From an uncultured Gemmatimonadales bacterium (GTDB taxonomy: Bacteria > Gemmatimonadota > Gemmatimonadetes > Gemmatimonadales > GWC2-71-9), in the NCBI GenBank assembly GCA_963739455.1, contig CAVUAK010000001.1:2016001-2080000 (forward strand): 64,000 bases of DNA, read 5' to 3'. Within the stretch, counting starts at the first letter, position 1, and each line of letters begins with the position of its first letter. The notes beneath the pieces are model-generated. The model saw only the letters and a list, made by a program, of their open reading frames with translations. It did not search any database and was not told the origin of the DNA. Position numbers and translations under genes: made by a program. Below, piece by piece: positions 24,245 to 41,939 of the stretch.

Positions 24245-24327
24245 TCGCGCCAGGCGGATCGTGGCGTTTGGTACCGACGGGAGTGCTTGCGGTGTGGCGG
24301 CGCGAGGGGCGACCGCTACACTGGCAG

Positions 24328-24992
24328 ATGCTTGCCCGCGTCTGCTCCGCCGCCGTGCTCGGCATCGACGCCTACCTGGTAGACGTCGAGATCGACATCA
24401 GTAGCGGGATGCCCACCTTCAATACGGTGGGACTGCCCCAGGGAGCGGTCAAGGAAGGCAAGGAGCGGGTCGCGGCGGCGCTGGCCAACGCGGGATACGC
24501 CCTCCCGCTCCGGCGCATCACGGTCAACCTGGCCCCGGCCGACGTGCCGAAGCAGGGATCCGCGTTCGACCTGCCGATCGCGCTGGGCGTACTGATCGCC
24601 AGCGAGCAGGTGCCTGCGTCGCTCTCGGATGCCCATGGCCGACGGACCGTCGTAGCGGGCGAACTGGGCCTCGAGGGCGACCTTCGTCCGGTTCGCGGGG
24701 CGTTGCCCATCGCCCTCGCTGCGCGTGCCGCGGGCGCTGCGGCACTCATCGTCCCACTGGCCAACGTGCCCGAGGCGGCTGTGGTCGCCGGGATCTCGGT
24801 CCTTGGCGCTGGCTCGCTCGCCGAGGTCTGCAGGCACCTCACCGGTGAGTCTCTCCTCTCAGCGGCCGCGGTGGATCCGGCGCGATACCTCGCGGCGGCC
24901 ATTCGCGATGACGCTGACTTTGCGGACGTGCGTGGGCAGGCGGGGGCAAAGCGAGCACTGGAGGTGGCGGCCGCCGGCGCACACAACATCCT
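24328..24992 (+). pseudogene. comM: comM/YifB Mg-chelatase-like ATPase, 5' part interrupted by an insertion
   Basis: VGLPQGAVKE, RITVNLAPA, FDLPIALG, GELGLEG, DVRGQ..AKRALEVAAAGAHNIL, then breaks. Confidence 0.95.
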
Positions 24993-25000
24993 AATATTTT

Positions 25001-25020
25001 CACCTTGAGGACCTAAGGAC
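25001..25020 (+). repeat. attL-side inverted repeat arm CACCTTGAGGACCTAAGGAC
   Basis: 18/20 match to the reverse complement of 40935-40954. Confidence 0.9.
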
Positions 25021-25052
25021 CGCTGGGTAGGTTCAACTCAAGGAGACAGCCA

Positions 25053-26714: not shown

Positions 26715-26741
26715 AGCGCAACTCCAGCAATATCCATGACG

Positions 26742-26765
26742 AGGCCCCCGCGCAGGGGGCTTTCC
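26742..26765 (+). terminator. Hairpin after the recombinase gene
   Basis: gccccc-gcgca-gggggc followed by ttt. Confidence 0.5.
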
Positions 26766-26796
26766 CATATTGCCTACCAACACCTCCCCGGAGCCT

Positions 26797-27477
26797 ATGC
26801 CTACCAAGAAGCCAGTGAAGAAAACCAAAGAGCAGCAATGGGCCGCTACGGTTGCCCGCTCGAAGCACGACATGAAGGCGAGCCGGGTCTACTGGAGCAA
26901 CTACATCGCAACCTTTCGAGGCACCCACGCTGAGGACATCAACCCACGCTCACGCACCCCCATCCCCCCACTTCGGACCTGCCCCCTCCCAGACCGTGAG
27001 GGAGCCCCGTCACACATCCTGCGAAACGAGGCGGGCGTTCCTGTCCTGCGGCTCGTGGTGGATGATGACCGGTGGTCCTTCTGCATGAGCGAGGAGGCAT
27101 TCCAACGGTTGCAGGCGGAGGGTCGGAAGTCCAAGCCCGAGGTGGCTGCTCAGAGTGACCGTGAGTGGGCTACTCTCGAAGCCCTCCCCTACACACCCCA
27201 TCGCCAGCCGGGAGAGTTCGAGCCTAGCCTCGCCCTTGATCCGGCCGCACGACAGGAACGGCTGGACCTTGAGAGCGAACGGCTGCGGAGGCTGAGGGCT
27301 TATCACGAGCGCAGAGTATTTGATCCAGAGCGCCAGCGGGGACAGGCGGCGGCAAATCGGCGGCAGGATGCCCGCTTCGAGGCGTACAGAGCCGCAAGGA
27401 ACATCCGAAACGAGGCTCTTGGGCTCCCGCTAGAGGAAAATCCTATGGATTGCGGAACGCACACTTCACCTGCTTAG
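26797..27477 (+). CDS. Hypothetical protein (element)
   Basis: ggag RBS, MPTKKPVKK start, long open frame. Confidence 0.65.
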   Translation: MPTKKPVKKTKEQQWAATVARSKHDMKASRVYWSNYIATFRGTHAEDINPRSRTPIPPLRTCPLPDREGAPSHILRNEAGVPVLRLVVDDDRWSFCMSEEAFQRLQAEGRKSKPEVAAQSDREWATLEALPYTPHRQPGEFEPSLALDPAARQERLDLESERLRRLRAYHERRVFDPERQRGQAAANRRQDARFEAYRAARNIRNEALGLPLEENPMDCGTHTSPA

Positions 27478-27849
27478 GGCGTAGCTAGTGGTAAAGTTGC
27501 GCTCTTCAGTCCAATATTTCTGATGCAACTTGCCATCTCTCATGTCGATGGATACGACCCCCGCCAGAGGAGGCCCATAGGCGCAACTCCAGTTACGCTC
27601 ATCAAACACATCACAATTCGTAAACGTCTCCGTATCCCGCCCAAGGTCGCCCTCTCGGTCGCTGGCGTCCAAGACCCAAAGGACTTCCTTCTTCTCCTGA
27701 TCGAGCTTGTAGCGAACGACAAAAACGGTGGGGCTTTTCCTGTCAACGGCTGGCTCTTTCCGGGTCCAAGTATAGCGGCGTTCGACCATGCCGCAGCCAG
27801 ACGAGGCGAGCGCAAGTGCACCCAGCACCGCCCATCTAGCATGAATCAT
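27466..27849 (-). CDS. Hypothetical lipoprotein
   Basis: MIHARWAVLGALALASSGC lipobox-like signal. Confidence 0.65.
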   Translation of the reverse strand: MIHARWAVLGALALASSGCGMVERRYTWTRKEPAVDRKSPTVFVVRYKLDQEKKEVLWVLDASDREGDLGRDTETFTNCDVFDERNWSCAYGPPLAGVVSIDMRDGKLHQKYWTEERNFTTSYALSR

Positions 27850-28011
27850 CAAGCTGGATATCTGCTGTCTCATTCGAAAGCTCCTTGGCATACGCGAAGA
27901 GTGTGCGGTCTCGGCCGGGAACTGGCAAGGCGGCTAGGCCGATCGCCCCATGTACCTAGACAGAAGCGGTACCGCGAGCGACCCTTCGCACTACCCCTTA
28001 CGGATTCCAAC

Positions 28012-28473
28012 GTGAAAGTCTATCGGCTTCTCCTGCTCGCCTTGGCCGTGCTTCCACAGCTTGCAAACGCACAGCAAGATACGGCGCTCGCAAGGATGGA
28101 TTCGGCTAATGCCGTCCTTCAAGCCCGCCTCATCAAGGGCCGCGAGTGTACGAGTGAGGTGATGCCGGAGAGAGGACCAGTGACCAACTGCGATTTCATC
28201 TTGCCGGGGGCAATGCACCTCACGGCGGGGTCAGTCGGCACCGATAACCCCTCGGTCGTGGTGAACTGGACGGAGCGAGCCTACCGGTTCTACATCACTC
28301 AGCAAGACGGAGGCATGTGGGTGACGGTCTGGTACTCGGATGACCAACGTCCACCGGGAAACTGGAAGCATGGGGAGGCGTGCATCAACGTGAAGACGGC
28401 GCTAGTCTACCCAATCTCATGCGTGTGGGTCGTCATTGGGAATGCGAAGGGAAAGCCGAAGATCGGGAAGTGA
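28012..28473 (+). CDS. Hypothetical exported protein
   Basis: GTG start, KVYRLLLLALAVLPQLANA signal peptide, four Cys. Confidence 0.65.
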   Translation: MKVYRLLLLALAVLPQLANAQQDTALARMDSANAVLQARLIKGRECTSEVMPERGPVTNCDFILPGAMHLTAGSVGTDNPSVVVNWTERAYRFYITQQDGGMWVTVWYSDDQRPPGNWKHGEACINVKTALVYPISCVWVVIGNAKGKPKIGK

Positions 28474-28553
28474 GATTTCTCCGGGGAATCTTGCGCTCGT
28501 GGGGTCGAAACGGGAGAATCGAGAAGGGCAATGGCGTCCTCTAGGAGGAACTG

Positions 28554-29192
28554 GTGGTAAGGTACACAGTGGCTCTATTGGTCGGACTCGCCCCGTTCTG
28601 CTGCGTCCCTGTTTGGGCGCAGATGACTCCTACCCCAAGCTCTTCCCAAAGTGCAGAGCCACAAAAGGCAGACCCCAATGCGCCGCTTCCTAAAGTAGGG
28701 GAGCCCACAGGGGACGCCATTCCTTTCTTCAAGGTTGATTACAACCAGTTCACCGACAGTACCACCCTCAAGGGACCGAGGTTGGATAAGGTGTCCTTCT
28801 ATGCGCGCATGGAGGCGAGCTTCCTCGGTCAGAAGTTGCCAGAGACTTTTCAGACTGTGTTGCGCTTCGAGTACAAGGACATCGGGAATGCGAGAGCGAT
28901 TCCGCTAGGAGCGGAGCTGTCACCCTTCAAGACGGGTGGGACGGTCTACCTCCTCTTTGATGGCGGTGCGGCTCGTGCTGCGCTCCCCATTGTAGCGACG
29001 AGGTTTGAGGCAGCAGCGACAACGCCAGTCTACAAAGGCTGGGCGGTGGTCTCGGATTCAGTTTTGCGGTTGATGAGCGCGTCAAAGAAGATTGAAGCGC
29101 AGTTCTTCGCTAGCCCAATGGGCAAGTGGACACTCCCGAACGACTCGCCGGGAGCGGCTCAGGTCCTCCTCCGACTGCTTGAGACCAAGTGA
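28554..29192 (+). CDS. Hypothetical exported protein
   Basis: ggagga RBS, signal peptide ending VWA-Q. Confidence 0.65.
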   Translation: MVRYTVALLVGLAPFCCVPVWAQMTPTPSSSQSAEPQKADPNAPLPKVGEPTGDAIPFFKVDYNQFTDSTTLKGPRLDKVSFYARMEASFLGQKLPETFQTVLRFEYKDIGNARAIPLGAELSPFKTGGTVYLLFDGGAARAALPIVATRFEAAATTPVYKGWAVVSDSVLRLMSASKKIEAQFFASPMGKWTLPNDSPGAAQVLLRLLETK

Positions 29193-30130
29193 CAATTTTT
29201 TCATCGCGACTTCCAAAGTCCGTGATGCGCGACGGGCGCTCTGCTAGGCTCAAGAAGCTCTTAAGTGGTGAGGAAACTCAGCACGTCGAGTTCAAGAAAT
29301 CGGTTGGGTTAGTCGAATCAGCAGATTTTGTGCAGTTTGCAAATTCTTCTGATGGCGGCGAAATCCTCGTCGGTGTGGAGGAGGTTAAAGACGGCAATGG
29401 TCGAAGAATGCCCACGGTGGTTGGCTGCCTCACCACTGACGCGAACAAACGAAGTCTGCTGGACAAAGCGGGTTCATGTTCGCCTCCAGTAGACATCACG
29501 GTCCACGTGGAGAAGGTCGAGGGCAAGCAATTCTATCGGGTGGTGATCCCGAGTGGACTGCACAAGCCCTATTGCACAGCAAGTGGGACTTACGTTATCC
29601 GAAACGACGGCGAGAGGAAGGCTTTGCTCCCCGCACAGCTACTGAATCTTTTTCTTGAATCGCAGGGGACTACGTTCGTGGAACGCTTTAAGGAAGCTTC
29701 GAGGGGAATTGATGAGGCTCTGAAGGAGATGCGTAGTCGTATTGAGGAAGCAGGCAGTGCGACGGAGGAGCAGCTCAACCTCATCTCACGGGTTGCTGAG
29801 CACGCGAGTGAGACATCCGATGAAGCTATGAGCAATGCCGCTGATGCCGTCGCTGCAATTGAAGATGTCTCTGCTCAAGTCGATGCCGCTCACAATGACC
29901 TTCTTGAGAGTGTCCACAGCGCGAACCGGAGGCTGAAGAAGGTTCTCAAGCATCAAGGGATCTCAGATCCGGATGAGGATGACGCTGAGTATTGGCGGAA
30001 GTTTGCGGAGAAGCAGGAAGCGAAGGAGAGAGAGGCGGCGGCACTTCTCGGGCAAGCCGCCAGCCAAGAGAAGTCAAAGGGTTCCAGACCTTTGCGGTCG
30101 CGAAAGAACGCTTCGCGTAAGCGCAGTTAG
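29189..30130 (+). CDS. Schlafen/AlbA_2-domain protein with C-terminal coiled coil
   Basis: ETQHVEFKK, FANSSDGGEILVGVEE, IPSGLHKPYCT..G.YVIR. Confidence 0.85.
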   Translation: MTIFSSRLPKSVMRDGRSARLKKLLSGEETQHVEFKKSVGLVESADFVQFANSSDGGEILVGVEEVKDGNGRRMPTVVGCLTTDANKRSLLDKAGSCSPPVDITVHVEKVEGKQFYRVVIPSGLHKPYCTASGTYVIRNDGERKALLPAQLLNLFLESQGTTFVERFKEASRGIDEALKEMRSRIEEAGSATEEQLNLISRVAEHASETSDEAMSNAADAVAAIEDVSAQVDAAHNDLLESVHSANRRLKKVLKHQGISDPDEDDAEYWRKFAEKQEAKEREAAALLGQAASQEKSKGSRPLRSRKNASRKRS

Positions 30131-30220
30131 GTGAGAATCGACATAGACCGGGCTGCTAGGAGTTGAGTGGTTTTCTGAGTACCTTGTGTTGGTAGGTATC
30201 CACCCCCTTCAAGGAGGCCC

Positions 30221-30532
30221 ATGACTACCCCCAGTGACCCCCCAAGTACCCCGCCACTCCCCTCAGCAGGCTCCCGCCCCGAAGACAAACCCCTCTCCTA
30301 TTGGCTCGACCTCGTAGCCTCCTGTATTCCTAGCAAAGATCCCAATGATGGTCCAACCGATTTCACTGGACGAATCCCGAAGACCGTGGAAGAGCGGGCG
30401 TACATCGGACATCTGGCGCGAGGCGGGACGTTGAGCTTCGAGATCTTTTCGAGGTGGTCAACGGAAGTGATGGATCAGGTCTTCATAGAAACGCTACAGG
30501 AGTTTCGGGAGGAGCGGGGGGCGAAAGCTTAG
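30221..30532 (+). CDS. Hypothetical protein
   Basis: aaggagg RBS before ATG. Confidence 0.6.
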   Translation: MTTPSDPPSTPPLPSAGSRPEDKPLSYWLDLVASCIPSKDPNDGPTDFTGRIPKTVEERAYIGHLARGGTLSFEIFSRWSTEVMDQVFIETLQEFREERGAKA

Positions 30533-31116
30533 ACCTCGCCGCGAGTCTTCTTGAGACGCCGCATGGCTTGTTGAATCGCCGTCGAGACATATTCGGGCTG
30601 GCGCTGTATCTGATGCCCGGAGAAGCGCAGGAGCGTGTACCCCTTCGCCTGTAGCGCATTCCCCACTCGATAGTCCTTCTCGCGCTGTGGTACCGTCGAG
30701 TGAAAGTCATGGCCGTCGCAGTAGATGGCGAGTGGCAGGGTCAGATGGAGCAAGTCAGGGTAGGTGTCTCCCGGTTCACACTCGCCCGCAATGCTCAAAT
30801 ACGGGATAATGAGTGCGCGGCCCCGCCTGAACTCCGACATGATTCCGCACCGAACAAGCAGCCGATCCATATCAAGCTCGATCTCCGACTCAACCATTAT
30901 CAGAGAAGCTGCTCTCTCCATGAGGACCGGCAGGATGTCGCGGAAGGAGAGCGCCTTCGAAGCTCGTGGGACCTTCCATGCGAGGAGGTCACTGAAGCGG
31001 TTGCAGAGGTCGGCAAGCAGCCGCTCTTCCCCCAAGGTGAGAGCTACCGCCGCGAGACGCGCGAGGGCGTTGTCGGTGGTCGGCTGGGGCTTCGGTGAAG
31101 GAGCAACTGAGGTCAC
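30529..31116 (-). CDS. DUF559/Vsr-like endonuclease-domain protein
   Basis: YPDL...AIYCDGHDFH...REKD....LQAKGYTLLRFSGHQI. Confidence 0.8.
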   Translation of the reverse strand: MTSVAPSPKPQPTTDNALARLAAVALTLGEERLLADLCNRFSDLLAWKVPRASKALSFRDILPVLMERAASLIMVESEIELDMDRLLVRCGIMSEFRRGRALIIPYLSIAGECEPGDTYPDLLHLTLPLAIYCDGHDFHSTVPQREKDYRVGNALQAKGYTLLRFSGHQIQRQPEYVSTAIQQAMRRLKKTRGEV

Positions 31117-31805
31117 TTCTTGGCCCGTCGTGATTTCGGGGTTGGGGCCTTCCGTCGCGAGGGTTGCGTTTCGGCGCGGACTGTTTGCATGCCAAACTCA
31201 CTGTCCGATTGTGCTGAAACGTCCATTGTTAGGCCGGACGCCAATGCGGCATGAAAGAGGCCGTGTTGCTGAATGTCTATCTCGAAGAGATCCACCGCAT
31301 CATAGAGGGCGTGCGCGTCGAGAGACGAAAGCTCACGCAGCTTAGGAACGAGGGTGGCGGCAACCTTTGCTGGCTCAACTCGTGATGGGAAGGCCCGATG
31401 TTCGGGCTTCGCAATCTTGACCCATTCGTCGACAACGGCCCAGAGAAAGCGGGGGATTCTCTTGCGCTCAGAAGCGATCGCTTCTACGAGCAGAAAGGCC
31501 TCCTCACGAGTCAGGCGGAGTCCAAGCACGGTCTCGCGAGCGGTAGCGTAGTACCTCTCAAGATCTCGCCGCACTATTGCCGCAAGTGATTCGTCCGGCC
31601 AGCGCCGACGGCGAGCCACTTCCAAAGCCAGTTGTTCCCCGAGCCTCAATGAGATCGGGGGATTCCCAATATCAACGGTGTTGACGCCAACAGAGATGGT
31701 GAACCCGGACATGGGCTCACCGTCCTTCACGAACGGCCCCTGCGGACCGAAGGGTATCGGTTCGCCGATAAGGCCGGGAGGAGTCGTGGGCGGGTTGTCA
31801 GTCAC
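31113..31805 (-). CDS. Probable ribbon-helix-helix regulator
   Basis: ISLRLGEQLA...SLAAIVRRDLERYY; GTG start inferred from the upstream promoter. Confidence 0.55.
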   Translation of the reverse strand: MTDNPPTTPPGLIGEPIPFGPQGPFVKDGEPMSGFTISVGVNTVDIGNPPISLRLGEQLALEVARRRRWPDESLAAIVRRDLERYYATARETVLGLRLTREEAFLLVEAIASERKRIPRFLWAVVDEWVKIAKPEHRAFPSRVEPAKVAATLVPKLRELSSLDAHALYDAVDLFEIDIQQHGLFHAALASGLTMDVSAQSDSEFGMQTVRAETQPSRRKAPTPKSRRAKK

Positions 31806-31830
31806 ACAGGAGGTCCAGTTAAGGTTCCCG

Positions 31831-31866
31831 AAGATACAGGTGTATACAAATGTCGTCAAGTGTATT
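31831..31866 (-). promoter_or_regulatory. Sigma70 promoter TTGACG-N17-TATCTT with overlapping ATACAC repeats
   Basis: -35 at 31854-31859, -10 at 31831-31836. Confidence 0.7.
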
Positions 31867-32641
31867 GGAAGGAGGAAGGCTCTGAACCGACCTGAGGCTG
31901 AGATTTTGTTGCGGGCACAGGAGCGCCTTGTTCTCCCCCTCAAGTGTGGTAGTAATCCCCCCTAGGGGGCCTTGTCAGGGGACCCACCAAATCGGGGCCG
32001 GGCACCCTCCTTAGCCCACCATCTCACCCACTGCCGGGCCCTCTTACATCCGCTCGGTCTTCACTGACATACGGTTAGCCCTGTGTGACCCGCTGATACC
32101 CAATCAGCTATCAGGGTCAGGGGAACCCAACAGGATGCTCGTGGGGTCTGAGCCTGTCTGTGCGGGGCACCAGAAGGGCCTTTGAAGGGGCCTTCGGAGG
32201 AGCCTTGGCGGGCTCAGTAGGCTCGATGCGCGCCTAGCTGGGGTTCTTGATAGGGAACCTGCTGAGGACCCCTTGCGGGAATCTTCAGGAAAACGGGCTG
32301 AAATCCCCGAAAAACGGTCATTTTCTCGCGATTTCGGGCCGAAATAAGGCATTTTGGGGGTGTCGAAGGGCATTCGGAGGGGCGGTGTCTAGGGACCCCT
32401 AGAAATGGATCAGAGCCCGGCTAGGAACCCACTGAAGTCACTGTCACGCGCTCAAGTGGGTCCTGTAGAGCCACTGTGCAGACACAGCGAGCGAGATGAG
32501 TGCTTCTATTTCGAGCGAGGTTGACTCAGGACGAACGATCTCTGGCCTAGTTGAGCCGAGTGAGCGTTGAGGATAGATCGTGGCTCAGACTGGCGTAGGC
32601 TGGCTAGTGGAAGAGGCATCAATCGGGGCAGGCATCTTGCT

Positions 32642-32911
32642 ATGTCCGAAGGCATGAAAGTGATGAAGCGCCCGAAGAAGAGGCCGGTCCTCTACCACGG
32701 AAAACCGTGTCACCGCTGCGGAGGCACCCGCCGGTTCAAGAGCAACCGAAGCTGCACAGTCTGCACGCGGAAGGCTGCGGCGGAAGATGCCAAGCTCTAC
32801 CATGTCAGGAAGTTCAACCGCAGGGCGGCTTGGGTGCGGTCGCACAAGGAATTAATGGATCGTCTGGAAGCCCTCTCGAAGACCCTGCCCAGCTACGCGG
32901 ATCTGGAGTAG
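32642..32911 (+). CDS. Small C4 zinc-finger protein
   Basis: YHGKPCHRCGGTRRFKSNRSCTVC; exact start uncertain. Confidence 0.7.
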   Translation: MSEGMKVMKRPKKRPVLYHGKPCHRCGGTRRFKSNRSCTVCTRKAAAEDAKLYHVRKFNRRAAWVRSHKELMDRLEALSKTLPSYADLE

Positions 32912-33281
32912 TAGCACCCTAGTGACTTCATGTAAGGAAATGCGAGTGCGAGTGTAGCATTTAAAGCATTTAATTGCTGCATGTTAGAACACATTGTGTT
33001 GCTCATTATCTGCACAAATGCTCCCTGTAGTGCATAAGGAACTCTCAAAAATCGTCCGATTTGTAACGAAGGGCGCGCCCCGAGGCGCCTTTTTCCCACC
33101 TCGACAGGGCCGGTAGTAGCCCCAGATCCTTGATGTAAGAAATTGCGAGGGCAATGATACAGCGCAAGATGTTTATTAGCTTAATCTTACGGTCAGTCTA
33201 TGTAGTGGAAAATCTGCACAAATGCCACCTGTTTTGCACAAGAGACCGCGAAAAGGTCCGACCGTAGTGCTATGGCGCTAC
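32908..33281. repeat. Degenerate ~205-bp tandem repeat (2 units), possibly structured ncRNA or origin
   Basis: GTAGTAGC at 32908 and 33113; ATGTAAG.AA.TGCGAG; ATCTGCACAAATGC at 33008 and 33212; GTCCGA at 33054 and 33256. Confidence 0.8.
33069..33094 (+). terminator. Terminator-like hairpin ending repeat unit 1
   Basis: aagggcgc-gccccgag-gcgccttttt. Confidence 0.5.
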
Positions 33282-33871
33282 CCGCAGTCAGGAACTCTTG
33301 AGCCTTCGGTTCTCCTTTGGATGAATACCTCCGACCGTAGTGAGGAAGAGACGCGGTTTGATCTCAACGACTTACGGAAACGTGAAGGGCACGCCAAGGC
33401 ATTCCGCCTAAGCGTCTGTGCTGCGTTGGGGTTGCTGCACTCGTGGTGTCAGGAGTGTATAGCACGACTCATCTGTGCAACCATCCAGCGGCCTGAGAAA
33501 CCCGAAGGGAATCGCCCACCCAATCACAACGACTTAGCCAAGCTGGTTGATCCCTCGTCGGAAATTGCCCTAGCTCCAAGACGTGTCATGCTTTACGAAG
33601 CTCTGCCGGACAGTTTGTGAAGAATGAACAAATAGCTTAGGAACCTTCGGAGGCTCGCCGGGCCCTCCCTTTTATAACCGTTCCCACACTACCGGACTGC
33701 AAGAAGTTGCCGACTGGCTGACGCTATAGTGGGCTCTCTGGGTGGTGATAGGCTCCTTCTTCAGTAATCCCCTCAGATACCTCTGAAGGTTCTTGGAGGT
33801 AGTTGGTAGCTCCAGTTCCCCACCAAGTTCCTCAACCAATCCCCTGCAAAGGACCCTGCCATAGGCCCGCC

Positions 33872-35311
33872 ATGACTTCGCTTTTCCTCGACTACCGGTC
33901 CGCTCTCGTGGATCGGGTGCCCCACCTCAGCCTCGAACGCTTGACTGAGATTGGAGGGCAACGGGGACGCCTTCACGCTCAGGCTCGACAGGACGGATTG
34001 ATACGCCTCCTCCTGAGCAACTATGAAGGCACCCGACGAAGTTGGAACTCCGGTACCGACTACCGCGATTCCTGTTTCCCCAAGAAGACCCTTCAGAAGT
34101 ACCTCAAGACCTCCGGCAGTTCCCATCATCAGAAGTTCCTCACGCCACTCTTCGCATTTCATCAGGGGCAACGCGGGTACTCCGCCTCTGCTGGGATGGG
34201 TAAGAGCTATCGCATGCTTCCCCACATCCGCGCTGTGTTGGACGATCTCTACCAAGGCTTTGCTCCGGTTCGGCTGATCGGAAGAGATGGGGAGGAAGTC
34301 TTCCTCAAGGACCTCGCCGGGTTCCCCTTCACACCCACCTGCATGCTGCCCGGCTGCGTCCCGCTCGATGCCGTGGCGCTCCATCGGCGGATTGCGGAGG
34401 TGGAAAGCTGGCAGACAGACACCATTGGGCGACTTGCGAAGGCTGAGATCCTTCAGCGTCTCCGAGTCCTACGGAAGTGGGCTGTATCTGCGGGTGGAAT
34501 TCCGAACGGCTACAGCATGACCTCAACGGGACGAGCTGGTCCCTCAACAGAAGGAGGCCCTCACCTCATCGGCATGTCCCCCGAGGTGCGAACGCTGGTG
34601 TTTGCGGAGACGGATCTCGTGGACTTCGACTTGAAGGCGTCCTTCTGGACCTGTCTCCAGTCCGTGGCGGCACACCTCACGATCAAGACACCCGCTATCT
34701 CAGACTACATCAGCCACCGAGACCAGTTCTTCCTCCCCCGATGGGCGAAACTGCTCAACATGGACGCGGCGGTCTTCAAGCCCGTCGCTACCTCGTGGCT
34801 CCTCGGCGCGCAGATCTCACCCTTCGCAAAGGCCATCAGGGACCTCAACGGGAACCCCTTCACGATCTCCGCAACGCTCCGTAGCGATGACCTCACCGTG
34901 CGTCTACAGAAGCGGATCAGGGCGGAAGCGGCGAAGGTCTTGAACAAGTACGCGGCAGGGCTCCCGAAGGGGACCTCTGGAGGCGTCTTGAATGCAGTCG
35001 GAGCGGAGTTCTTGGGGGACGCTGAGGAAGAGGGTGGGCTCCACTGCCACCTACTCACCGGCTTGGAGCAGTTCGCCATGCGCTCCATAGTCTCGCACAT
35101 CCCCACCCCTACCGCCGTGATCTTCGATGGTGTCATAGCTCCAGCGTTCCCGGTGGAGCATCTCGAAGACGTTGTAAGGATTCAGTCAGAGAAAACCCTC
35201 GGGTTCCCCCTCCGAGTTCGTATCAAGGCATCTCCGTTTGCCGAGCAGTTCGAACGGATGCGCTCTACGCTTCGCTCCTCACTCCCAGCGCGTGAGACAG
35301 CAGCAGCATAG
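33872..35311 (+). CDS. Divergent family-A DNA polymerase-like protein without exonuclease domains
   Basis: Ordered motifs TSTGR, HLIGMS..VR..F, LVDFDLKAS (A), FK....WLLG (B), LTGLE, IFDGV (C). Confidence 0.75.
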   Translation: MTSLFLDYRSALVDRVPHLSLERLTEIGGQRGRLHAQARQDGLIRLLLSNYEGTRRSWNSGTDYRDSCFPKKTLQKYLKTSGSSHHQKFLTPLFAFHQGQRGYSASAGMGKSYRMLPHIRAVLDDLYQGFAPVRLIGRDGEEVFLKDLAGFPFTPTCMLPGCVPLDAVALHRRIAEVESWQTDTIGRLAKAEILQRLRVLRKWAVSAGGIPNGYSMTSTGRAGPSTEGGPHLIGMSPEVRTLVFAETDLVDFDLKASFWTCLQSVAAHLTIKTPAISDYISHRDQFFLPRWAKLLNMDAAVFKPVATSWLLGAQISPFAKAIRDLNGNPFTISATLRSDDLTVRLQKRIRAEAAKVLNKYAAGLPKGTSGGVLNAVGAEFLGDAEEEGGLHCHLLTGLEQFAMRSIVSHIPTPTAVIFDGVIAPAFPVEHLEDVVRIQSEKTLGFPLRVRIKASPFAEQFERMRSTLRSSLPARETAAA

Positions 35312-35385
35312 CTGGCCCACTACACCCGACGCGGACCTTACATCCGCAGCACTTCACCCCACATCATCAACCTCTCAATAGGACT

Positions 35386-35589
35386 ATGCCCACCACGAAC
35401 AGTCTCCAGACCCGCCGCCGTCCCGCCTCGAACGCTCGCTATGCCTCCATCGGCTTCATGCGTGAAGATCTCGAACGCTTCGAACGCCTCCGCAACATGC
35501 TGACTAGGCAGTGGAATACCAGTGTTCCCCCGAGCCGCTCCGAGGTGGTCACGCTCGCTCTCGAAGCCCTCGAAGAGAAGCTCAAGTAG
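35386..35589 (+). CDS. Small RHH/CopG-like DNA-binding protein
   Basis: SIGF..EDLERFERL...SRSEVVTLALEAL; agga RBS. Confidence 0.65.
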   Translation: MPTTNSLQTRRRPASNARYASIGFMREDLERFERLRNMLTRQWNTSVPPSRSEVVTLALEALEEKLK

Positions 35590-35687
35590 TTCACTCCGCA
35601 GTTTCCTCAAGCAGTACCCCACCCCGCTCCACCGTCGCCCCTCCTTGCCGCGCCCTGCGGCTTCATCGCGACAGAAAAACCGCAGTC

Positions 35688-36143
35688 ATGTCTACTACGA
35701 CCTCCAACGTCCGGCCTCTCACGGTCACCTACGAGGGCTGTCCCTGCCGCAACTGTGGCACGACGACGAAGTACCGCTCGAACCGCATGTGTGTCGTCTG
35801 CACGGCTCGTCGCAACAGGACCGAACCACTGCGCGCCGCAAAGTTGGAATGGACCGAAAACAATCCCGACCGCTACGCGGCACTCGCGGGCAAGCACAAC
35901 GCCTCGCGCCGGTATCCGGGCTGTGTCGCCCCTGACTTCGACCTTGAGGCTACGGTCCCATTCTACCAGCTAGCCCGAGAACTCACGCGCACGACGGGTC
36001 TTCGCTTCGAGTGTGACCACATCATCCCACTGTGCGAAGGCGCAATCCACGATTGGACCAACCTTCAGGTGCTTCGCGTTGACGAGCACCAGCGGAAGAC
36101 CGCGACAGAACACCCACGCTCACGCAAGGAAAGTGCAGCATGA
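35688..36143 (+). CDS. HNH endonuclease with N-terminal C4 zinc finger
   Basis: CRNC...SNRMCVVC; ECDHIIPL..G..HDWTNLQVL...H.RK. Confidence 0.88.
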   Translation: MSTTTSNVRPLTVTYEGCPCRNCGTTTKYRSNRMCVVCTARRNRTEPLRAAKLEWTENNPDRYAALAGKHNASRRYPGCVAPDFDLEATVPFYQLARELTRTTGLRFECDHIIPLCEGAIHDWTNLQVLRVDEHQRKTATEHPRSRKESAA

Positions 36144-36268
36144 AGAACCCCAAGAAAACCCCACGCGGTACCCCACGAGCCTACTGGAGCCTTGACCGGA
36201 TTGTGGCGAAGGTCATGCACGGCTTCGTGGATCATGGCAAGTACGCCTACCTCGAAAACCCGAAATGA
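36140..36268 (+). CDS. 42-aa hypothetical protein (not in ORF track)
   Basis: aagga RBS; ATGA overlaps with the genes on both sides; MKNPKKTPRG...LENPK. Confidence 0.55.
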   Translation: MKNPKKTPRGTPRAYWSLDRIVAKVMHGFVDHGKYAYLENPK

Positions 36269-36411
36269 ACTTCTCGCACCATGCAGACTACCCGCGTCCG
36301 ATCATCGGTAAGCGATGCGGGAAGTGTCGAGGCTGCTTCTGGGAGGTCACTACCACCGGACGGTCGTGCATTGTCTGCACCCGGAAAGCATCCCGTGCTA
36401 TCGAGCGATGA
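36265..36411 (+). CDS. 48-aa C4 zinc-finger protein (not in ORF track)
   Basis: ATGA overlap; GKRCGKC...GRSCIVCTRKA resembles the 32642 protein (RSCTVCTRKA). Confidence 0.65.
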   Translation: MNFSHHADYPRPIIGKRCGKCRGCFWEVTTTGRSCIVCTRKASRAIER

Positions 36412-36592
36412 TGCTTCGATCTGTTGCCCACGCTGCAAGCGACTGGTTCGCTACATCGGGAGTAATGGCATGTGCGGCGCGTGCTGGCAAGCGACGGTAC
36501 CTGTAGAGGTCTCCGAGGAAGAGCATGACGCTATCCAACATGCAGCCGACCAAGAGGCTGCTCGACACAATGGAGTGAGACAGACCAAATGA
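36281..36592 (+). CDS. Zinc-finger ORF; start uncertain, may be the frameshifted continuation of 36265
   Basis: CPRCKRLVRYIGSNGMCGAC. Confidence 0.45.
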   Translation: MQTTRVRSSVSDAGSVEAASGRSLPPDGRALSAPGKHPVLSSDDASICCPRCKRLVRYIGSNGMCGACWQATVPVEVSEEEHDAIQHAADQEAARHNGVRQTK

Positions 36593-36870
36593 CCAAGATG
36601 TTCTTCAGTGGCTATAGCGAGAAAGAGCATACCTGCTCGCGCTGCGGAGTTCACGGCAGCTTCGGCCAACATGGGCTCTGCTTTAGGTGTTCACTCCCAT
36701 CATCCCCCCACAACATCAACGAGAATGACGACATCAGAACCCGATTCCGTAGGTATCGCTCCGACTAGGGGCGTACTGTCTGACAAGTCCCCTTCCGTAA
36801 CCCTCTCGGCGGCGCTTGTGCTCCTTCAGGCCGTCCGCATCGACACAAAGCTGTCGCATCTCTTCAAGCC

Positions 36871-37695
36871 ATGAACATCAGTGATCTCCTGAGAACGCCG
36901 TCGAAGCCGCGTACTCGCGGAGTCCGACAGTGCTCCATTCCGGGCTGCACCAACCTCGGGAAGCGAAACGTCTACTCTCCCCTCTGTGGTAAGCACATTC
37001 GGCGGAAGGAACTGAACGGGCACCCGGAGCAGGTAACTGCGAGGCTCAAGGATGCAAAGCCCTACATCGACACTGTGAAGAGGCTACTGCGAAGGCTCCC
37101 CCACGAGAACCGCATCAAGCTTGAGGGCGCGATGCATCGTAAGTGGCTCAATTACCGAGACTGGCTACATGACGTGGAGTCAGGGCTAGAGCCGAGCTAT
37201 GCCACCCGGCGCTGTGAGCGGGCCGCAACTGAGCTTCTCCGCGTCTTCGATAAGTGCGACCCTGTGACCGGCTTCACTCTTCTCGCCGCCGTCTTCCTTT
37301 GGGACGCAAGCGAGCCGGGGCGGTTTAAAGCGCCTTACGGGTTGGAGTACTCGCTAGTCAACCTGTTCACTCATCTCGGCCCAAAGCACTCGGCCCGCAC
37401 AGTCTGCCGTCGTAATGGCGTTGTCGAGACCCGGACCGAGTACCGAGTTGCTCCCAAGAGTGTGCGCCTTCACATGGCGGATTGGCTCACCGCGTTTGCG
37501 ACTCCCTTTGCGGCACGGATGCTTGCCCTGTCGCGCTCTGAGTCGGAGGTGAAGAGGCAAGAGCAGGAGCTTCTTCTCACGCTCTTCTCGCCCGTCAAAG
37601 CTGAACTGGACGCACGGAAAGCTCTTGTAGAGGAGCGCCTGCACATTGCCCGAGAGATCCGCGCTGAAGAATTGAGCCAGACCACAGCGGGTTGA
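36871..37695 (+). CDS. Hypothetical protein with N-terminal CxxxxC...CxxH zinc finger
   Basis: CSIPGC...LCGKH..R...NGHP, a phage-type finger. Confidence 0.7.
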   Translation: MNISDLLRTPSKPRTRGVRQCSIPGCTNLGKRNVYSPLCGKHIRRKELNGHPEQVTARLKDAKPYIDTVKRLLRRLPHENRIKLEGAMHRKWLNYRDWLHDVESGLEPSYATRRCERAATELLRVFDKCDPVTGFTLLAAVFLWDASEPGRFKAPYGLEYSLVNLFTHLGPKHSARTVCRRNGVVETRTEYRVAPKSVRLHMADWLTAFATPFAARMLALSRSESEVKRQEQELLLTLFSPVKAELDARKALVEERLHIAREIRAEELSQTTAG

Positions 37696-37912
37696 AGCGG
37701 CCCCCCGTGCAGGGGACAAGCCAATGCGACAACTCAGTGTGGGCAGGAGGAAGAGAGTCGAAGCCGCAACATGGCAACGCCCTGCGGGGACCCATGAGGC
37801 GCCAACCGAGGCTCTCCCCTCCGCTGGTTTTCATTGTTGTACCTCATCGAACCTCCGAATCACTCGGAGATCATTCATTCAACCGCCGCAGTACACAAAG
37901 GAATCAATTCCA

Positions 37913-38224
37913 ATGATCGACCACACCGAACGCCGCACCGCTATGTACGGGAATGCAACCACGCACTCCGTGGTTGAGATGATGCAGAATCCGCTTTATG
38001 AAACGAGCGCGACTTACCGCGCAGAGGTTGCTGCAAAGATCGCTGCCGAGGATGCGGCACAGTCCACCATGCCGGGAACTGAGATCGTACCAGAGGTGAC
38101 CGAAGGTCTGCGGCCCTTTGCCGATCAGTTCGAACTGAACGCGGCGATGCAGTCCGAGCGATACCGCCGGAGCCCCGAGTACCGGGCGAACGTGGCGGCA
38201 CGGCTCTCCATCTCCAACGTCTAA
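37913..38224 (+). CDS. Mini protein with two T7-like capsid-scaffold C-terminal motifs
   Basis: aaagga RBS; EMMQNPLYETSATYRAEVAAKI and FADQFELNAAMQSERYRRSPEYRANVAARLSISNV. Confidence 0.75.
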   Translation: MIDHTERRTAMYGNATTHSVVEMMQNPLYETSATYRAEVAAKIAAEDAAQSTMPGTEIVPEVTEGLRPFADQFELNAAMQSERYRRSPEYRANVAARLSISNV

Positions 38225-38492
38225 CCCAACGCCGGTAGGCAGAGAGGTGGTGAAGACTTATTCCTAACATCAGCAAGAGCGGGGCGGTCGTTCCAATGCC
38301 CCAGCCGGTAGATGCCACGCCGTACAAGCAGACCTCTGAGGTCCTTGGCGTCCGAAGCACCAAGTAGTCCCTCGCCTCCCGGAGCAATCCGGGGGGTTCG
38401 GTCCCATGCCTTCCTAGGCAGCGACCTGTTTGACGATTCGTTGATCCCCTCCACCCACTTTCCTCCATACACTTCCTCAACCGGACCTCACC

Positions 38493-38753
38493 ATGACCCC
38501 TCAACTGCATATCGCGCTCATCAGTCGCGATTGGGCCGTACGCAGCATGATGCTCCGACGGATTCCCGTTGAGGACCTCCGGGAGGGACTAGGAGCAGTG
38601 CTTCCAGATGAAATATTGTTCAGCCTACAAGACGAATTGCGGAGACGAGGAGAACGTTGGGAGGTTCCATTGACGCTCGCGGACGATCCGTCCGTTCCGG
38701 CGCACAAGGTACCGTATCCGCACCCTGAGCCAAACCGAGGCATTCGCCGATAG
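38493..38753 (+). CDS. Hypothetical protein
   Basis: 86-aa ORF ending just before the convergent gene. Confidence 0.45.
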   Translation: MTPQLHIALISRDWAVRSMMLRRIPVEDLREGLGAVLPDEILFSLQDELRRRGERWEVPLTLADDPSVPAHKVPYPHPEPNRGIRR

Positions 38754-38758
38754 AACTG

Positions 38759-40852
38759 CTACTCCTTTGCGCGGCTGCGACTCGGAGAGGCGCGCTTTAT
38801 GGTGTTCACCTTCTTTGCCGACTTCACGCTCGGTGCCTTCTGAACAGTCTTAGCCTTCGGTGCCTTCGTCGCCGGATTTGCTGCGGGTGCGATGGTCTGT
38901 GGCAGATACTTGTCATGTTCCCTTTTTAGGAACTCGATCCCTGACGCCTTTGTCGCGCTAAGTTCGAGCTTTTCCTTGAAAAACTCTAAGCGCGCTCGCG
39001 CATCGTTGATGACATCTGCCCAAGTCTTCACATAGACCTTACCGCGACCGTCATAAAGCAGTGTCGGATAGGTCTGTGCCTCAACTTCAACATGCAAGGC
39101 TGAGGACAATGCCCAGAATTCCCAAGTGGTTTCAGCTTTGGGAAATGCAGGCGATGACATGAGGGCCTGCGCGTAACGCATTACCTGCGTTGTTGCATTT
39201 AGGTCGATCTTCTCGCTTGGCCGCTTCAGTTCGACAACCAAGTGATGGCGCTTCGGCGAGGAATTGAGCTTGAGGATCTTCGAAAACATGAGATCAAGAG
39301 TCAAGTTCATGTTTGGGTTTACGGAGCCGTCAAGCGCCAAGATGTCAATGTCGTCGCGCTTACCGCACTCTTGACGCACAACCGTGTCCAGCTTTTGGTC
39401 GTCAGCCGTGATGTTCAGTTCCTCGCCAAAGAGCCACGTATGCGCGGCGACGATGCGATGAAGCTGCGTGCGCTCCTTCACAACGTTTTTGTACTCTGTG
39501 CCGTAGGCGAGGGCGTGTAGGCCCTCTAGGAAGTCAAGGCGATCGGCTACGAGTGAGGAAGCGGAAATGATTGCCGACAGCGAGCTTCGGCTCAACAGCT
39601 TGCTCAGCTCCTCCTGTTTTGCCGGAGAAAGCCCAAGCACTTCAATGAGGATGTGTTGCAGGTCCTCAGAGCCCGATTCAATCGCACTACGGAGAAGCCG
39701 AAAAGTGAGCTTCTTTGACGCGTCATCGGCAGCAGCAATGGCCGGGGAGGCATCAACAACGTTGATCGCCAAGATGTCAAAAACCCGGCGTTCCGCTTCC
39801 TCAATGATTGTAACGGGCGCATTCTCAAACGGATAGACTTTATCAGCCTTCCACTCTTCGACGATGGAGAGTCGCTTTTCTTGCTTTAGGTTGGTCACAT
39901 AGTCCCGGACAGACTGCCGCGCCGCATTGGCCAAAGCCGTAACGTCGTCGTTCAGGTCGTCGAGGATCAGGGTACCGCTTGTCGCCGCTTCTGAAATCGC
40001 TGGCGAAGACAAATGAGCGGTGAGGTTTAGAGAGCCAGTTCCAACGTCGAGGGTGACGTGATGCAGCGTGTTGCCTGCGCTGTCGCAAAGGTAGAGATAC
40101 TTCTGGATCGCCGCGTCAGAATTCCACTCGATAATGTCCAGCGTGCCGTGAATGTCCTTCTTGTCGTTTACGGAGGCAACAACCTGAACTGTCGAACTCC
40201 GTGCTATGAGGGCATTGGCGTCGAGCTGTTCACCCGCAATCGTGATAACCGTATCTGGGTACTTGCGAAGGAAGAGCGCGAATGTACGAGCGAGGACGGC
40301 GCGGCTCTCCGCAGAGTGCAAGTCCGGGAGATTCTTGTTCATACCGGTAACTGTGACTTCGGTGCCGGTGTCTGTCCGATCATTCTCGGGGACTGCGTCC
40401 GAGATTTCGAAAGAGACGGTGCTAGTGCCCAACTTGCCGCGTAGGGTGACGGTCTCTAAGCCCTTTGCACCGTCGAAGGTTGATTTCCATTCGACATTTG
40501 GGCCAAGTGCGAATGCGCGAAGACGTCCCTGACCGCGCCTGCCATGCACGATGCGACCCTTGCCCGTAACAGTCGCATTTCTCTTTTTCGAACCCCCTAG
40601 CAAGCTGAACCCCTCCGCAGCCTCAAGGGCAGACATTCCGGTCCCATTATCCGCTACTACAATGCTCTCTGTGCCTGTCAGAAGCGTCTGTGTTACGCTG
40701 ACACTTACAGCCGTTGCATCAGCGTCAAGACTGTTCCAGATAAGTTCTGAGAGCGCAGCAAGTGGATTTCCACGCGTAAGGCTGTGGAGATGGTCGCCCG
40801 CGAGTGCCACCGGCAGCGGATGCATCTTGGGAGCGGGGAGCGTGGTGGCCAT
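38759..40852 (-). CDS. GHKL (HATPase_c) ATPase fused to a C-terminal PD-(D/E)xK-like nuclease
   Basis: ELIWNSLDADA, DNGTGM, GRRGQGR; C-terminal LDL...VVELKRP...QVMRYA; ggag RBS. Confidence 0.85.
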   Translation of the reverse strand: MATTLPAPKMHPLPVALAGDHLHSLTRGNPLAALSELIWNSLDADATAVSVSVTQTLLTGTESIVVADNGTGMSALEAAEGFSLLGGSKKRNATVTGKGRIVHGRRGQGRLRAFALGPNVEWKSTFDGAKGLETVTLRGKLGTSTVSFEISDAVPENDRTDTGTEVTVTGMNKNLPDLHSAESRAVLARTFALFLRKYPDTVITIAGEQLDANALIARSSTVQVVASVNDKKDIHGTLDIIEWNSDAAIQKYLYLCDSAGNTLHHVTLDVGTGSLNLTAHLSSPAISEAATSGTLILDDLNDDVTALANAARQSVRDYVTNLKQEKRLSIVEEWKADKVYPFENAPVTIIEEAERRVFDILAINVVDASPAIAAADDASKKLTFRLLRSAIESGSEDLQHILIEVLGLSPAKQEELSKLLSRSSLSAIISASSLVADRLDFLEGLHALAYGTEYKNVVKERTQLHRIVAAHTWLFGEELNITADDQKLDTVVRQECGKRDDIDILALDGSVNPNMNLTLDLMFSKILKLNSSPKRHHLVVELKRPSEKIDLNATTQVMRYAQALMSSPAFPKAETTWEFWALSSALHVEVEAQTYPTLLYDGRGKVYVKTWADVINDARARLEFFKEKLELSATKASGIEFLKREHDKYLPQTIAPAANPATKAPKAKTVQKAPSVKSAKKVNTIKRASPSRSRAKE

Positions 40853-40934
40853 CGGATGACTCCAGAGAGAAGGCAGCAGCCACCCCAAACTAACCCGAAC
40901 AGTGGCCGAAGATAGGGTGGCGGAGTTGGTGCTT

Positions 40935-40954
40935 GTCCTTAGGTCCCCAAGATG
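40935..40954 (-). repeat. attR-side inverted repeat arm
   Basis: GTCCTTAGGTCCCCAAGATG, inverse of 25001-25020 with 2 mismatches. Confidence 0.9.
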
Positions 40955-41863
40955 CTGTTGATCGGCCCTCCCGGGTCGGGCAAGACCATGCTCGCGCGCC
41001 GCCTGCCCGGCATCCTCCCGGCGATGTCGCTGGACGAAGCGCTCGAGACCACGAAGGTGCACAGTGTTGCCGGCCTGCTCGGCGCGGGCCGCGCGCTCTG
41101 CACCACCAGGCCATTCCGCGCGCCTCACCACACCATCAGCGACGCTGGTCTCGTGGGTGGCGGCACGCCCCCGCGCCCCGGAGAAGTGAGCCTGGCGCAC
41201 GGTGGCGTGCTCTTCCTCGATGAGCTCCCGGAGTTCAGGTCGAGCGTGCTCGAAGTGCTGCGCCAGCCGCTGGAGGATGGCACCGTCACCTTGAGCCGCG
41301 CGGCGATGAGCCTCACATATCCTGCGCGCATCATGCTGGCGGCAGCGATGAATCCATGCCCGTGTGGCTACGCCGGCGATCCGGCGCACGCCTGTCTCTG
41401 TCCTCCGCAGGCGGTGCAGCGCTACCGTGGCCGTGTGTCGGGTCCACTGCTTGACCGCATCGACATTCACCTCGAGGTGCCCGCCATTCCCTACCGGGAC
41501 CTGACCGGGAGCCAGCCGGCCGAGCCGAGCCGCAGCATCGCGGAGCGGGTCGAGAACGCGCGCGTCTCGCCCAGCGCGAACGGTTCGCGGCCATTCCCGG
41601 CATGCATGCCAATGCGCACATGGGTGCCAGGGAAGTGCGTCGCTTCTGCGCACTCAACTCCGGAGTCGGAGGCGATCCTGCGATCCGCGATCACCCGGCT
41701 GGGCCTGTCGGCCCGCGCGTACCATCGCGTGCTCAAGATCGCGCGGACCATCGCCGACCTCGCGGGCGCCGATGCGCTCGCCGTCGCCCATGTCGCGGAG
41801 GCGATCCAGTACCGGAGCCTCGACCGGAGCCAGCCGGCGCTTGCGCCGGCGGGAGGGCGCTGA
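40952..41863 (+). pseudogene. comM: comM/YifB 3' part (AAA+ domain), with compensating frameshifts near 41570-41660
   Basis: [72 protein letters not shown]. Confidence 0.95.
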
Positions 41864-41939
41864 ACCAGCGGCTCCGAAGCCCGCCCCTCCCGCCACACCG
41901 CCGGACTCGCTTTCTTCCGTCATCCCAAGCCCACATCCC

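Follow-up and report, generated by a model that had tools for sequence, protein, structure and literature searches.

A 103-residue protein with two copies of the T7-type scaffold tail, encoded on an integrated island in a Gemmatimonadales genome

We describe a small protein, P0001, encoded in a 64,000-nucleotide (nt) stretch of the genome of an uncultured Gemmatimonadales bacterium (contig CAVUAK010000001.1, positions 2,016,001 to 2,080,000; this whole stretch is called the window below), within an integrated island of 15.96 kb. Judged by its sequence, P0001 reproduces the C-terminal tail of the T7-type capsid scaffold (gp9 family) twice over, as a covalently bivalent protein that stands alone: two tail units joined by a linker, with nothing else attached. 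It probably binds the coat protein of T7-like phages in competition with scaffold. The full reading, in which the island is a satellite that uses P0001 to pirate the capsids of such a phage, we put at a probability of roughly 0.35.

The open reading frame (ORF) of P0001 is clean, and the AGGA upstream of it is a plausible candidate ribosome-binding site. The metagenomic relative P0002, described below, aligns to P0001 starting at residue 1, and we therefore favour the start at 37913 over an upstream ATG at 37724. An earlier note on this DNA had proposed a 103-amino-acid (aa) frame of this kind, with a good ribosome-binding site and an internal duplication of the scaffold C-terminus. Both of the peptides it quoted are present, and residues 1-52 align with residues 53-103 at a local score of 49 (BLOSUM62), a value reached by one of 5000 shuffles. 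The note had also expected a scaffold profile to match twice by its C-terminal end, and this is what we found. Whole P0001 matches the Pfam family PF05396 (Phage_T7_Capsid) at 41.9 bits, over a cut-off of 27.1, and PHROG 1052 ('head assembly') with an E-value of 1.9e-14, in two stretches each; PF05396 was the sole Pfam family returned at E ≤ 10. Each profile is covered twice and at its end, over about positions 142-186 of 188 in PF05396 and 255-293 of 293 in PHROG 1052.

The two halves of the protein also match when taken separately. Residues 1-45 alone reach positions 156-186 of PF05396 (E 0.0041, below the cut-off by itself) and positions 260-290 of PHROG 1052 (E 3.9e-5); residues 52-103 alone reach positions 154-185 (27.8 bits, E 3.8e-6) and positions 257-293 (E 2.5e-8), respectively. 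No scaffold body was detected in P0001, the part of the Pfam and PHROG profiles upstream of the tail being unmatched, and its 103 aa compare with 206-307 aa for scaffolds. The note's statement that scaffolds are about three times longer agrees with T7 gp9 (307 aa), the other scaffolds read for this comparison having 206-289 aa. The homology to gp9 is plainest in the second unit (tail 2), where gp9 residues 273-306 align with P0001 residues 69-102 at 41% identity. The core of canonical tails is A-M-x-D-P-R-Y, in which A, D and R are invariant in 81 of 81 tails, a set that was partly chosen by a motif filter.

We also observed a 25-nt direct repeat (22 of 25 identical; 35234-35258 and 38114-38138) that joins the 3' end of a 479-aa gene of the island, encoding PFAEQFE, to the start of tail 2, encoding PFADQFE. 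It could be a chance similarity or a trace of recombination.

As a comparison set we used 152 T7-like loci (22, 24, 80 and 26) from IMG/VR and JGI metagenomes that cover the head region or bear a T7-type tail. A hidden Markov model of 38 positions (the tail HMM) was built from the 81 distinct tails of these loci. Run over all 152 loci, it matched 153 ORFs with one tail each; none of the 153 had two, and under relaxed settings no 'second domain' had an i-E-value better than 210. All but two of the ORFs (151 of 153) are of scaffold type, with 206-291 aa where complete, some being cut by contig ends; the other two are a 105-aa protein of locus L030, to which we return below, and a gp11-like ORF in L081. 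Since all 153 ORFs carry a single tail, doubling is not a scaffold trait. A tblastn search of 50,697 phage records with P0001 gave 23 weak matches in cultured phages, all 23 at the 3' end of Autographivirales capsid-assembly genes, and P0007, a two-tailed relative, hit 25 records at one place each as a query in cultured phages, with no two-tailed gene among them. In T7 and in L005 the gene order is portal, scaffold, coat; the island of P0001 holds neither portal nor coat. The earlier note had named homologues confined to complete phage head operons as the finding that would speak against it. That is not the situation: a two-tailed gene occurs in none of the 152 fetched loci, and the multi-tailed relatives are short stand-alone proteins.

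The gp11-like (tail tubular A) ORF lies 3' of the coat gene and was also picked up by the tail HMM, at 33.9 bits in L081 (2928-3578) and 17.3 bits in L055 (12008-12607; the same ORF in L057-L060), over a segment that reads ETARRFI.LRAARIFQERT. As a carrier of the tail we judged it spurious from its sequence.

The multi-tailed relatives come from an exhaustive phmmer search with P0001 alone (1.84 billion representatives, E ≤ 0.001), which gave nine matches including the query. Six are short metagenomic singletons, all over the PF05396 cut-off: P0002 (111 aa), P0007 (125 aa), P0009 (145 aa) and P0005 (158 aa) have two tails, P0006 (174 aa) has three and P0008 (74 aa) has one. The remaining two, the giant proteins P0003 and P0004, have no tail-HMM match and were set aside as spurious. 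The motif-to-motif spacing in multi-tail proteins is 55-66 residues, with the exception of P0005 (83), and the linkers of P0001 and its relatives have 22-50 residues and are rich in Pro, Ala, Ser and Glu. P0002 is collinear with P0001 end to end at 49% identity. Between these two proteins, tail 2 against tail 2 scores 111 and tail 1 against tail 1 scores 60, whereas the tail pairs within each protein score 49 and 46; because the scores between proteins exceed those within them, both heads must have been retained since before P0001 and P0002 diverged. In P0005, P0006 and P0007 the best or near-best match of a tail is often its sibling tail in the same protein, which suggests separate duplications or homogenisation in these three. 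In P0009 and the L030 protein another 50-55 residues come after the tail, and a free C-terminus is therefore not required. P0001, P0002, P0008 and the L030 protein have in common the tail variant AM-x-S-[EP]-R-Y-R, which hints at a particular phage lineage outside the sampled loci.

Word-index protein searches with P0001 found P0001 itself as the only match of near length and nothing of longer length, a scan of the species-genome collection gave no relative of P0001, P0002 or P0008, and IMG/VR scans with P0002 and P0008 gave none either. Among 60 genomes related to the host, no P0001 homologue was found beyond one match in G042 (E 0.005, inside a 970-aa frame), which we treated as chance. P0002 and P0007 lie on contigs of 14.6 and 17.7 kb, respectively (ENA and Logan assemblies).

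The one relative whose genomic context was read is the L030 protein. L030 is a 6-kb metagenome contig (1-6076) that begins inside a gene for a T7-type RNA polymerase (PF00940, E 2.3e-89). Small genes follow, and about 0.75 kb downstream of the polymerase one of them encodes the complete 105-aa protein, with its single tail near the N-terminus and 58% identical to tail 2 of P0001. Farther downstream, L030:4775-5515 encodes 246 aa that match the 274-aa gene lying directly upstream of P0001 in the window (BLASTP, 24% over 239 aa, E 4e-14). The island and L030 have no genes in common besides these two; six 13-mers are shared where about three are expected, and the 13-mer comparison revealed no common promoter motif. 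Thus a tail gene and a 274-aa gene stand close together in two otherwise different elements, and the polymerase beside this shared pair in L030 links the island to the T7-like phage group. The scaffold-tail gene of L030 stands outside any head operon, and its context fits a gene that serves a phage as well as one directed against a phage.

An AlphaFold2 (AF2) model of P0001 from an 8-row alignment had a mean predicted local distance difference test score (pLDDT) of 71.7. Its predicted helices (15-24, 27-31 and 33-51; 72-80, 82-86 and 88-100) would form two helix-turn-helix-like units, one at residues 15-51 and one at residues 72-100. Tail 2 has a pLDDT of about 87-92; confidence is low at residues 1-15 and 52-62, with pLDDT below 50 at 52-62. 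Against BFVD the model gave no match at E ≤ 0.001; the best-placed rows (E 0.011-0.3) consist largely of T7-like capsid assembly proteins, with two short unnamed viral proteins besides, which we treated as a weak echo of the sequence match. A Foldseek search of the PDB found nothing at E ≤ 0.001, and a wide VIA-align search gave generic helix-loop-helix folds and hairpins with a best Z of 4.8. The PDB sequence search with P0001 returned nothing but apolipoprotein matches (E 0.17), which we dismissed as noise. In a complex prediction run without controls, P0001 with two copies of a stand-in T7-like coat protein (from L005, 35-row alignment) scored 0.18 and 0.19, the mark being 0.32.

The island that encodes P0001 splits a comM gene (Table 1), and its excision would restore the comM frame around H-N-(I/M)-L-L-I-G-P-P-G. 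It contains 59 ORFs of at least 75 aa, all of which were scanned against PHROG (15 + 44), and 20 main ORFs were scanned against Pfam. P0001 itself was the only head, tail or packaging match among the 59 in PHROG, and neither scan found capsid, portal, terminase or tail genes. The claim that the element lacks a major capsid gene thus stands, and a profile of 35 T7-like coat proteins was negative genome-wide. Marks of a phage satellite (PICI-like, in the broad sense) can be compared with these results. An integrase with site-specific insertion is present, in the form of a serine recombinase, a clean comM split and a terminal inverted repeat; for a replication module the 479-aa protein is a weak candidate; and a gene for hijacking packaging (TerS or similar) was not found among the 59 ORFs. 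The lack of capsid genes in the island is also as expected of an element that carries a CpmB- or Rcm-type protein.

Table 1. Features of P0001 and of the surrounding island, in positions of the window
Feature	Position	Strand	Basis
P0001, two scaffold-tail units + linker, 103 aa	37913..38224 (stop included)	+	ORF translation, PF05396, phrog_1052
Candidate ribosome-binding site AGGA	37899..37902	+	10 nt before ATG; read from sequence
Tail unit 1, degenerate copy, residues 17-45	37961..38047	+	tail HMM 18.5 bits, i-E 6e-7
Linker, residues 46-68, Pro/Glu/Thr-rich, partly predicted disordered	38048..38116	+	AF2 pLDDT
Tail unit 2, canonical copy, very C-terminus, residues 69-103	38117..38221	+	tail HMM 37.8 bits, i-E 5.9e-13
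Integrated island, ~15.96 kb	24990..40951	.	GC content 0.54-0.61 vs flanks 0.65-0.73; comM junctions
Split comM (Mg-chelatase-like), 5' part	24169..25008	+	Pfam ChlI E 1.5e-43, Mg_chelatase positions 1-29
Split comM, 3' part	40952..41863	+	Pfam Mg_chelatase positions 25-205, E 1.3e-81
12-nt terminal inverted repeat, left arm	25009..25020	.	reverse complement of 40935-40946
12-nt terminal inverted repeat, right arm	40935..40946	.	junction read
Large serine recombinase (integrase)	25053..26714	+	Pfam Resolvase, Recombinase, Zn_ribbon_recom; phrog_95 E 1e-78
Schlafen/AlbA_2 DNA-binding protein, DUF559/MTES_1575 endonuclease-like protein (island left half)	29189-30130 and 30529-31116 (-)		
479-aa protein, unnamed family	33872..35311	+	two metagenomic homologues, 28-30% identity
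HNH endonuclease, N-terminal zinc ribbon	35511..36143	+	Pfam HNH E 3.5e-4; phrog_1035 E 4.7e-11; phrog_333
274-aa gene directly upstream of P0001, N-terminal Cys-rich motif	36871..37695	+	L030 homologue
GHKL-ATPase protein, 704 aa, restriction-enzyme-like cargo, island right end	38759..40873	-	Pfam HATPase_c_3 E 2.3e-16

We propose that P0001 acts on the capsid of an infecting T7-like phage. Upon infection, each helical tail unit would dock on a coat subunit at the site of the scaffold tail. P0001 has no scaffold body and its two heads are tied by a flexible linker of 22 residues, so that it would both vie with the phage's own scaffold and hold coat subunits together in pairs within a short, fixed distance. 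Procapsid assembly would thereby be misdirected. The outcome that we slightly favour is a small shell of T=4 size that would fit the 16-kb island and exclude the phage genome, that is, satellite piracy. Taking (4/7)^1.5 = 0.43 as the size ratio and 37.3-47.7 kb as the length of complete T7-like records, we estimate room for about 16-21 kb in a T=4 shell; the 15.96 kb of the island would support such capsid redirection. Coat binding we infer from the sequence and from analogy, and by the same kind of inference we arrive at the capsid size, the helper phage and the transfer of the island.

Several points weigh against capsid piracy by P0001, or against one of its steps. First, its tails depart from the canonical core: in tail 1, N stands for D and L for R, both invariant in the 81 canonical tails, and in tail 2, S and E replace D and P. 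Tail 1 in particular may be weak or non-binding. Second, that the gp9 tail would be a coat-docking element is argued by analogy with P22 and 80alpha and from the account in PMC12005531. Third, a linker that flexes makes a worse ruler than the folded dimer domain of CpmB, the size-determining protein of the satellite SaPI1. Fourth, no small terminase or other recognisable packaging gene was found in the island by PHROG and Pfam. Fifth, the host genome (84% complete) gave no T7-like coat gene and no single-subunit T7-like RNA polymerase, a search that was also silent in all control genomes; nor does it hold another PF05396 match. Sixth, PF05396 was found in none of 400 other genomes sampled from the phylum, and no relative of the island turned up in 60 close genomes, the 400 phylum genomes, IMG/VR or the species-genome collection. 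Finally, the L030 gene, with its one tail and its place beside a T7-type RNA polymerase, suits a phage gene as well as a satellite gene. As L030 cannot clearly be called a satellite, we give capsid shrinking about the same likelihood as pure interference or a weapon of phage against phage.

A possible objection is that P0001 is an assembly poison and nothing more: bivalent docking on coat would merely block or derail T7-like procapsids, in defence or superinfection exclusion, and the island would go unpackaged. Three of the features already described favour plain interference over piracy, namely the lack of a packaging gene, the floppy linker without a folded spacer and the defence-like cargo that adjoins P0001, a restriction-enzyme-like GHKL protein. 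Schlafen/AlbA_2 and DUF559 proteins are encoded elsewhere in the island, and these domain types are frequent in defence islands. The one-tailed L030 relative, among small genes beside the polymerase, is also what a phage-borne competition gene might look like. On the other side, P0001 has no PADLOC match, and competitive inhibition could be had with a single tail, whereas relatives repeatedly have two or three and P0001 and P0002 have kept both. An island that would suit a T=4 shell in size, with its own integrase and a clean, excisable junction, also speaks against a poison alone. We take the poison to be possible, if somewhat doubtful.

The L030 locus raises a second alternative, that the tail gene and the 274-aa gene form an early or middle module of a T7-like lineage, so that P0001 would descend from a phage's own accessory gene and the island would be a decayed or mosaic relative. 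Such a gene might delay or tune the capsid assembly of its own phage, or exclude rival phages. The co-occurrence in L030 of a T7-type RNA polymerase, a tail protein and a 274-aa homologue speaks for it, and the AM-x-S-[EP]-R-Y-R variant common to P0001, P0002, P0008 and L030 agrees with it. However, no RNA polymerase, structural or lysis genes were found in the island, leaving no phage for the gene to serve; the overlap with L030 is limited to two genes; and two-tailed genes occur neither in cultured phages, as queried with P0007, nor in the 152 loci. We consider the accessory gene improbable in either of these roles.

Still less probable is that the tail serves as a targeting tag, or has some partner other than coat. 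It would then dock on the portal, the protease or the inner capsid surface and load a protein into procapsids or titrate a non-coat factor. According to PMC7196576, T7 capsid density assigned to scaffold helices touches the portal, and the 50-55 residues beyond the tail in P0009 and the L030 protein show that the tail needs no free C-terminus. P0001, however, consists of two tails and a linker, which leaves no cargo, and in the solved systems described in PMC5644958 and PMC12005531 the scaffold C-terminus is found on coat; we hold this role to be very unlikely. Least credible of all is a non-functional remnant, a scaffold-gene fragment of a decayed T7-like prophage duplicated by chance: tail 1 is indeed degenerate, but the ORF is intact with a site resembling a ribosome-binding site, P0001 and P0002 are collinear at 49% identity with both tails orthologous between them, five more short proteins are built in the same way, and PHROG detected no remnant of any other T7-like gene in the 59 ORFs of the island.

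The other genes of the island are only partly assignable to families. The 704-aa GHKL protein, probably defence cargo at the island edge, matches phrog_6203 over its full length (E 8.7e-74) and the PADLOC model REase_II (E 1.6e-10), and its N-terminal part matches the NCBIfam BbrUII/HgiDII restriction enzymes at 78.9 bits, below the cut-off. A 964-aa version of this ORF runs over the junction into comM antisense and was rejected as an artefact. The 479-aa protein has the conserved motifs GGIPNTY, DYD..SAH, K..A.S.LNG and YDGVIAP and no Pfam, PHROG or NCBIfam match; it may, on weak grounds, be a very divergent polymerase palm and thus a candidate replicase, and the Atlas gave a weak lead to DNA_pol_A at 0.76. 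Its AF2 model (pLDDT 46) was unusable, and no relative was found in the species-genome collection, in IMG/VR (trio query) or by tblastn of the 50,697 phage records. The 274-aa gene belongs to no known family in Pfam, PHROG or NCBIfam; it was found in none of the 400 other phylum genomes, not in IMG/VR (pair query), and without a tblastn match in the 50,697 phage records. The island also includes an 86-aa ORF.

Zinc-ribbon CxxC...CxxC motifs recur at 32567-32911, 35511-36143, 36265-36768 and 36871-37695, in small proteins and N-terminal domains, and two of these zinc-ribbon proteins have phrog_15231 and phrog_23777 in common; throughout its right half the island repeats this paralogous zinc-ribbon module. 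In or near a 310-bp gap before a 132-aa gene we observed repeats of 31 nt (33008-33038 and 33212-33242) and 20 nt (33250-33269 and 33323-33342), which may serve the island as operators or as an origin. Positions 24000-42000 gave no Rfam match, and scans for sigma-70 promoters and terminators stayed at chance level.

If P0001 does act as proposed, the principle of scaffold-tail mimicry would extend to T7-type podophages and to a distant phylum, and tandem duplication could replace dimerisation as the source of two coat-docking heads. At 103 aa, P0001 would also be a very small and easily testable tool to probe or block T7-type capsid assembly. The search signature that it offers, at least two PF05396 tail matches in a protein of less than about 180 aa, could be used to look for satellites and anti-assembly genes in metagenomes. 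One larger idea we offer tentatively and think unlikely on present evidence. In it, the island is the first satellite of T7-like (Autographivirales-type) phages, with a minimal two-tail tether as the size determinant that pins coat subunits in pairs and turns T=7 into T=4, in a little-studied soil phylum; multi-tail mini-proteins with two or three heads arose repeatedly, since the tails in most relatives most resemble their own siblings; and multivalent tail mimicry would be a general, easily evolved route to capsid piracy.

Known systems supply the terms of comparison. PMC12005531 describes scaffold C-termini that dock on coat in P22, 80alpha and SPP1, and density in T7 procapsids consistent with a coat-docking scaffold domain. 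Each P0001 unit is predicted to be helix-turn-helix-like, and in this resembles the C-terminal coat-binding domain of the P22 scaffold as described there, a small hairpin of helices that docks on the inside of the coat, although the two have no detectable sequence or fold match. Homology is detectable with T7 gp9 and the Autographivirales scaffolds, and tail 2 sits at the C-terminus as the tail does in them; these scaffolds, however, have a long body and one tail in 206-307 aa and are encoded between portal and coat genes, whereas P0001 has two tails and no body.

Among satellites, P4 Sid and PLE TcaP, which the earlier note named as functional analogues, force helper coat into small capsids (PMC7552001, PMC10945586). 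Both are external scaffolds with folds of their own rather than copies of the helper's internal-scaffold tail. The nearest parallel is CpmB of SaPI1. In PMC5644958, its C-terminal helix-and-hook copies that of the 80alpha scaffold (gp46) and occupies the same site on coat, while dimers of CpmB straddle capsomers and force T=4 shells. Like CpmB, P0001 is small and two-headed and predicted to be helical, with an end that is homologous to the T7-type scaffold tail and would compete with scaffold for its site on coat; and its island, like SaPI1, which targets a T=7 phage of about 40 kb (PMC5644958), has about 15-16 kb. The differences are as clear. CpmB's heads come together as a non-covalent dimer through a folded N-terminal domain, while P0001 carries both of its heads on a single chain, joined by a flexible linker, and has no further domain; CpmB ends in a RIIK helix-and-hook and P0001 in a PF05396 tail; CpmB acts together with CpmA, and no partner was identified for P0001; and CpmB works on siphovirus helpers in Firmicutes, whereas P0001 has a T7-type tail and lies in a Gemmatimonadota genome.

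A second scaffold-like satellite protein, Rcm of SaPIpT1028, binds the major capsid protein and redirects capsid size, according to PMC12409344. Rcm mimics a multi-helical scaffold topology from another phage family and has been shown to do so experimentally, whereas the mimicry of P0001 is a duplicated tail recognised in its sequence. Copying of the scaffold end is established by experiment only in staphylococcal SaPIs, in CpmB and Rcm, and the titles and abstracts of the literature searched describe no satellite or assembly decoy against T7-like phages. The principle is thus known from staphylococcal satellites; new in P0001 are its two heads in tandem, its proposed T7-type target and the phylum of its host.

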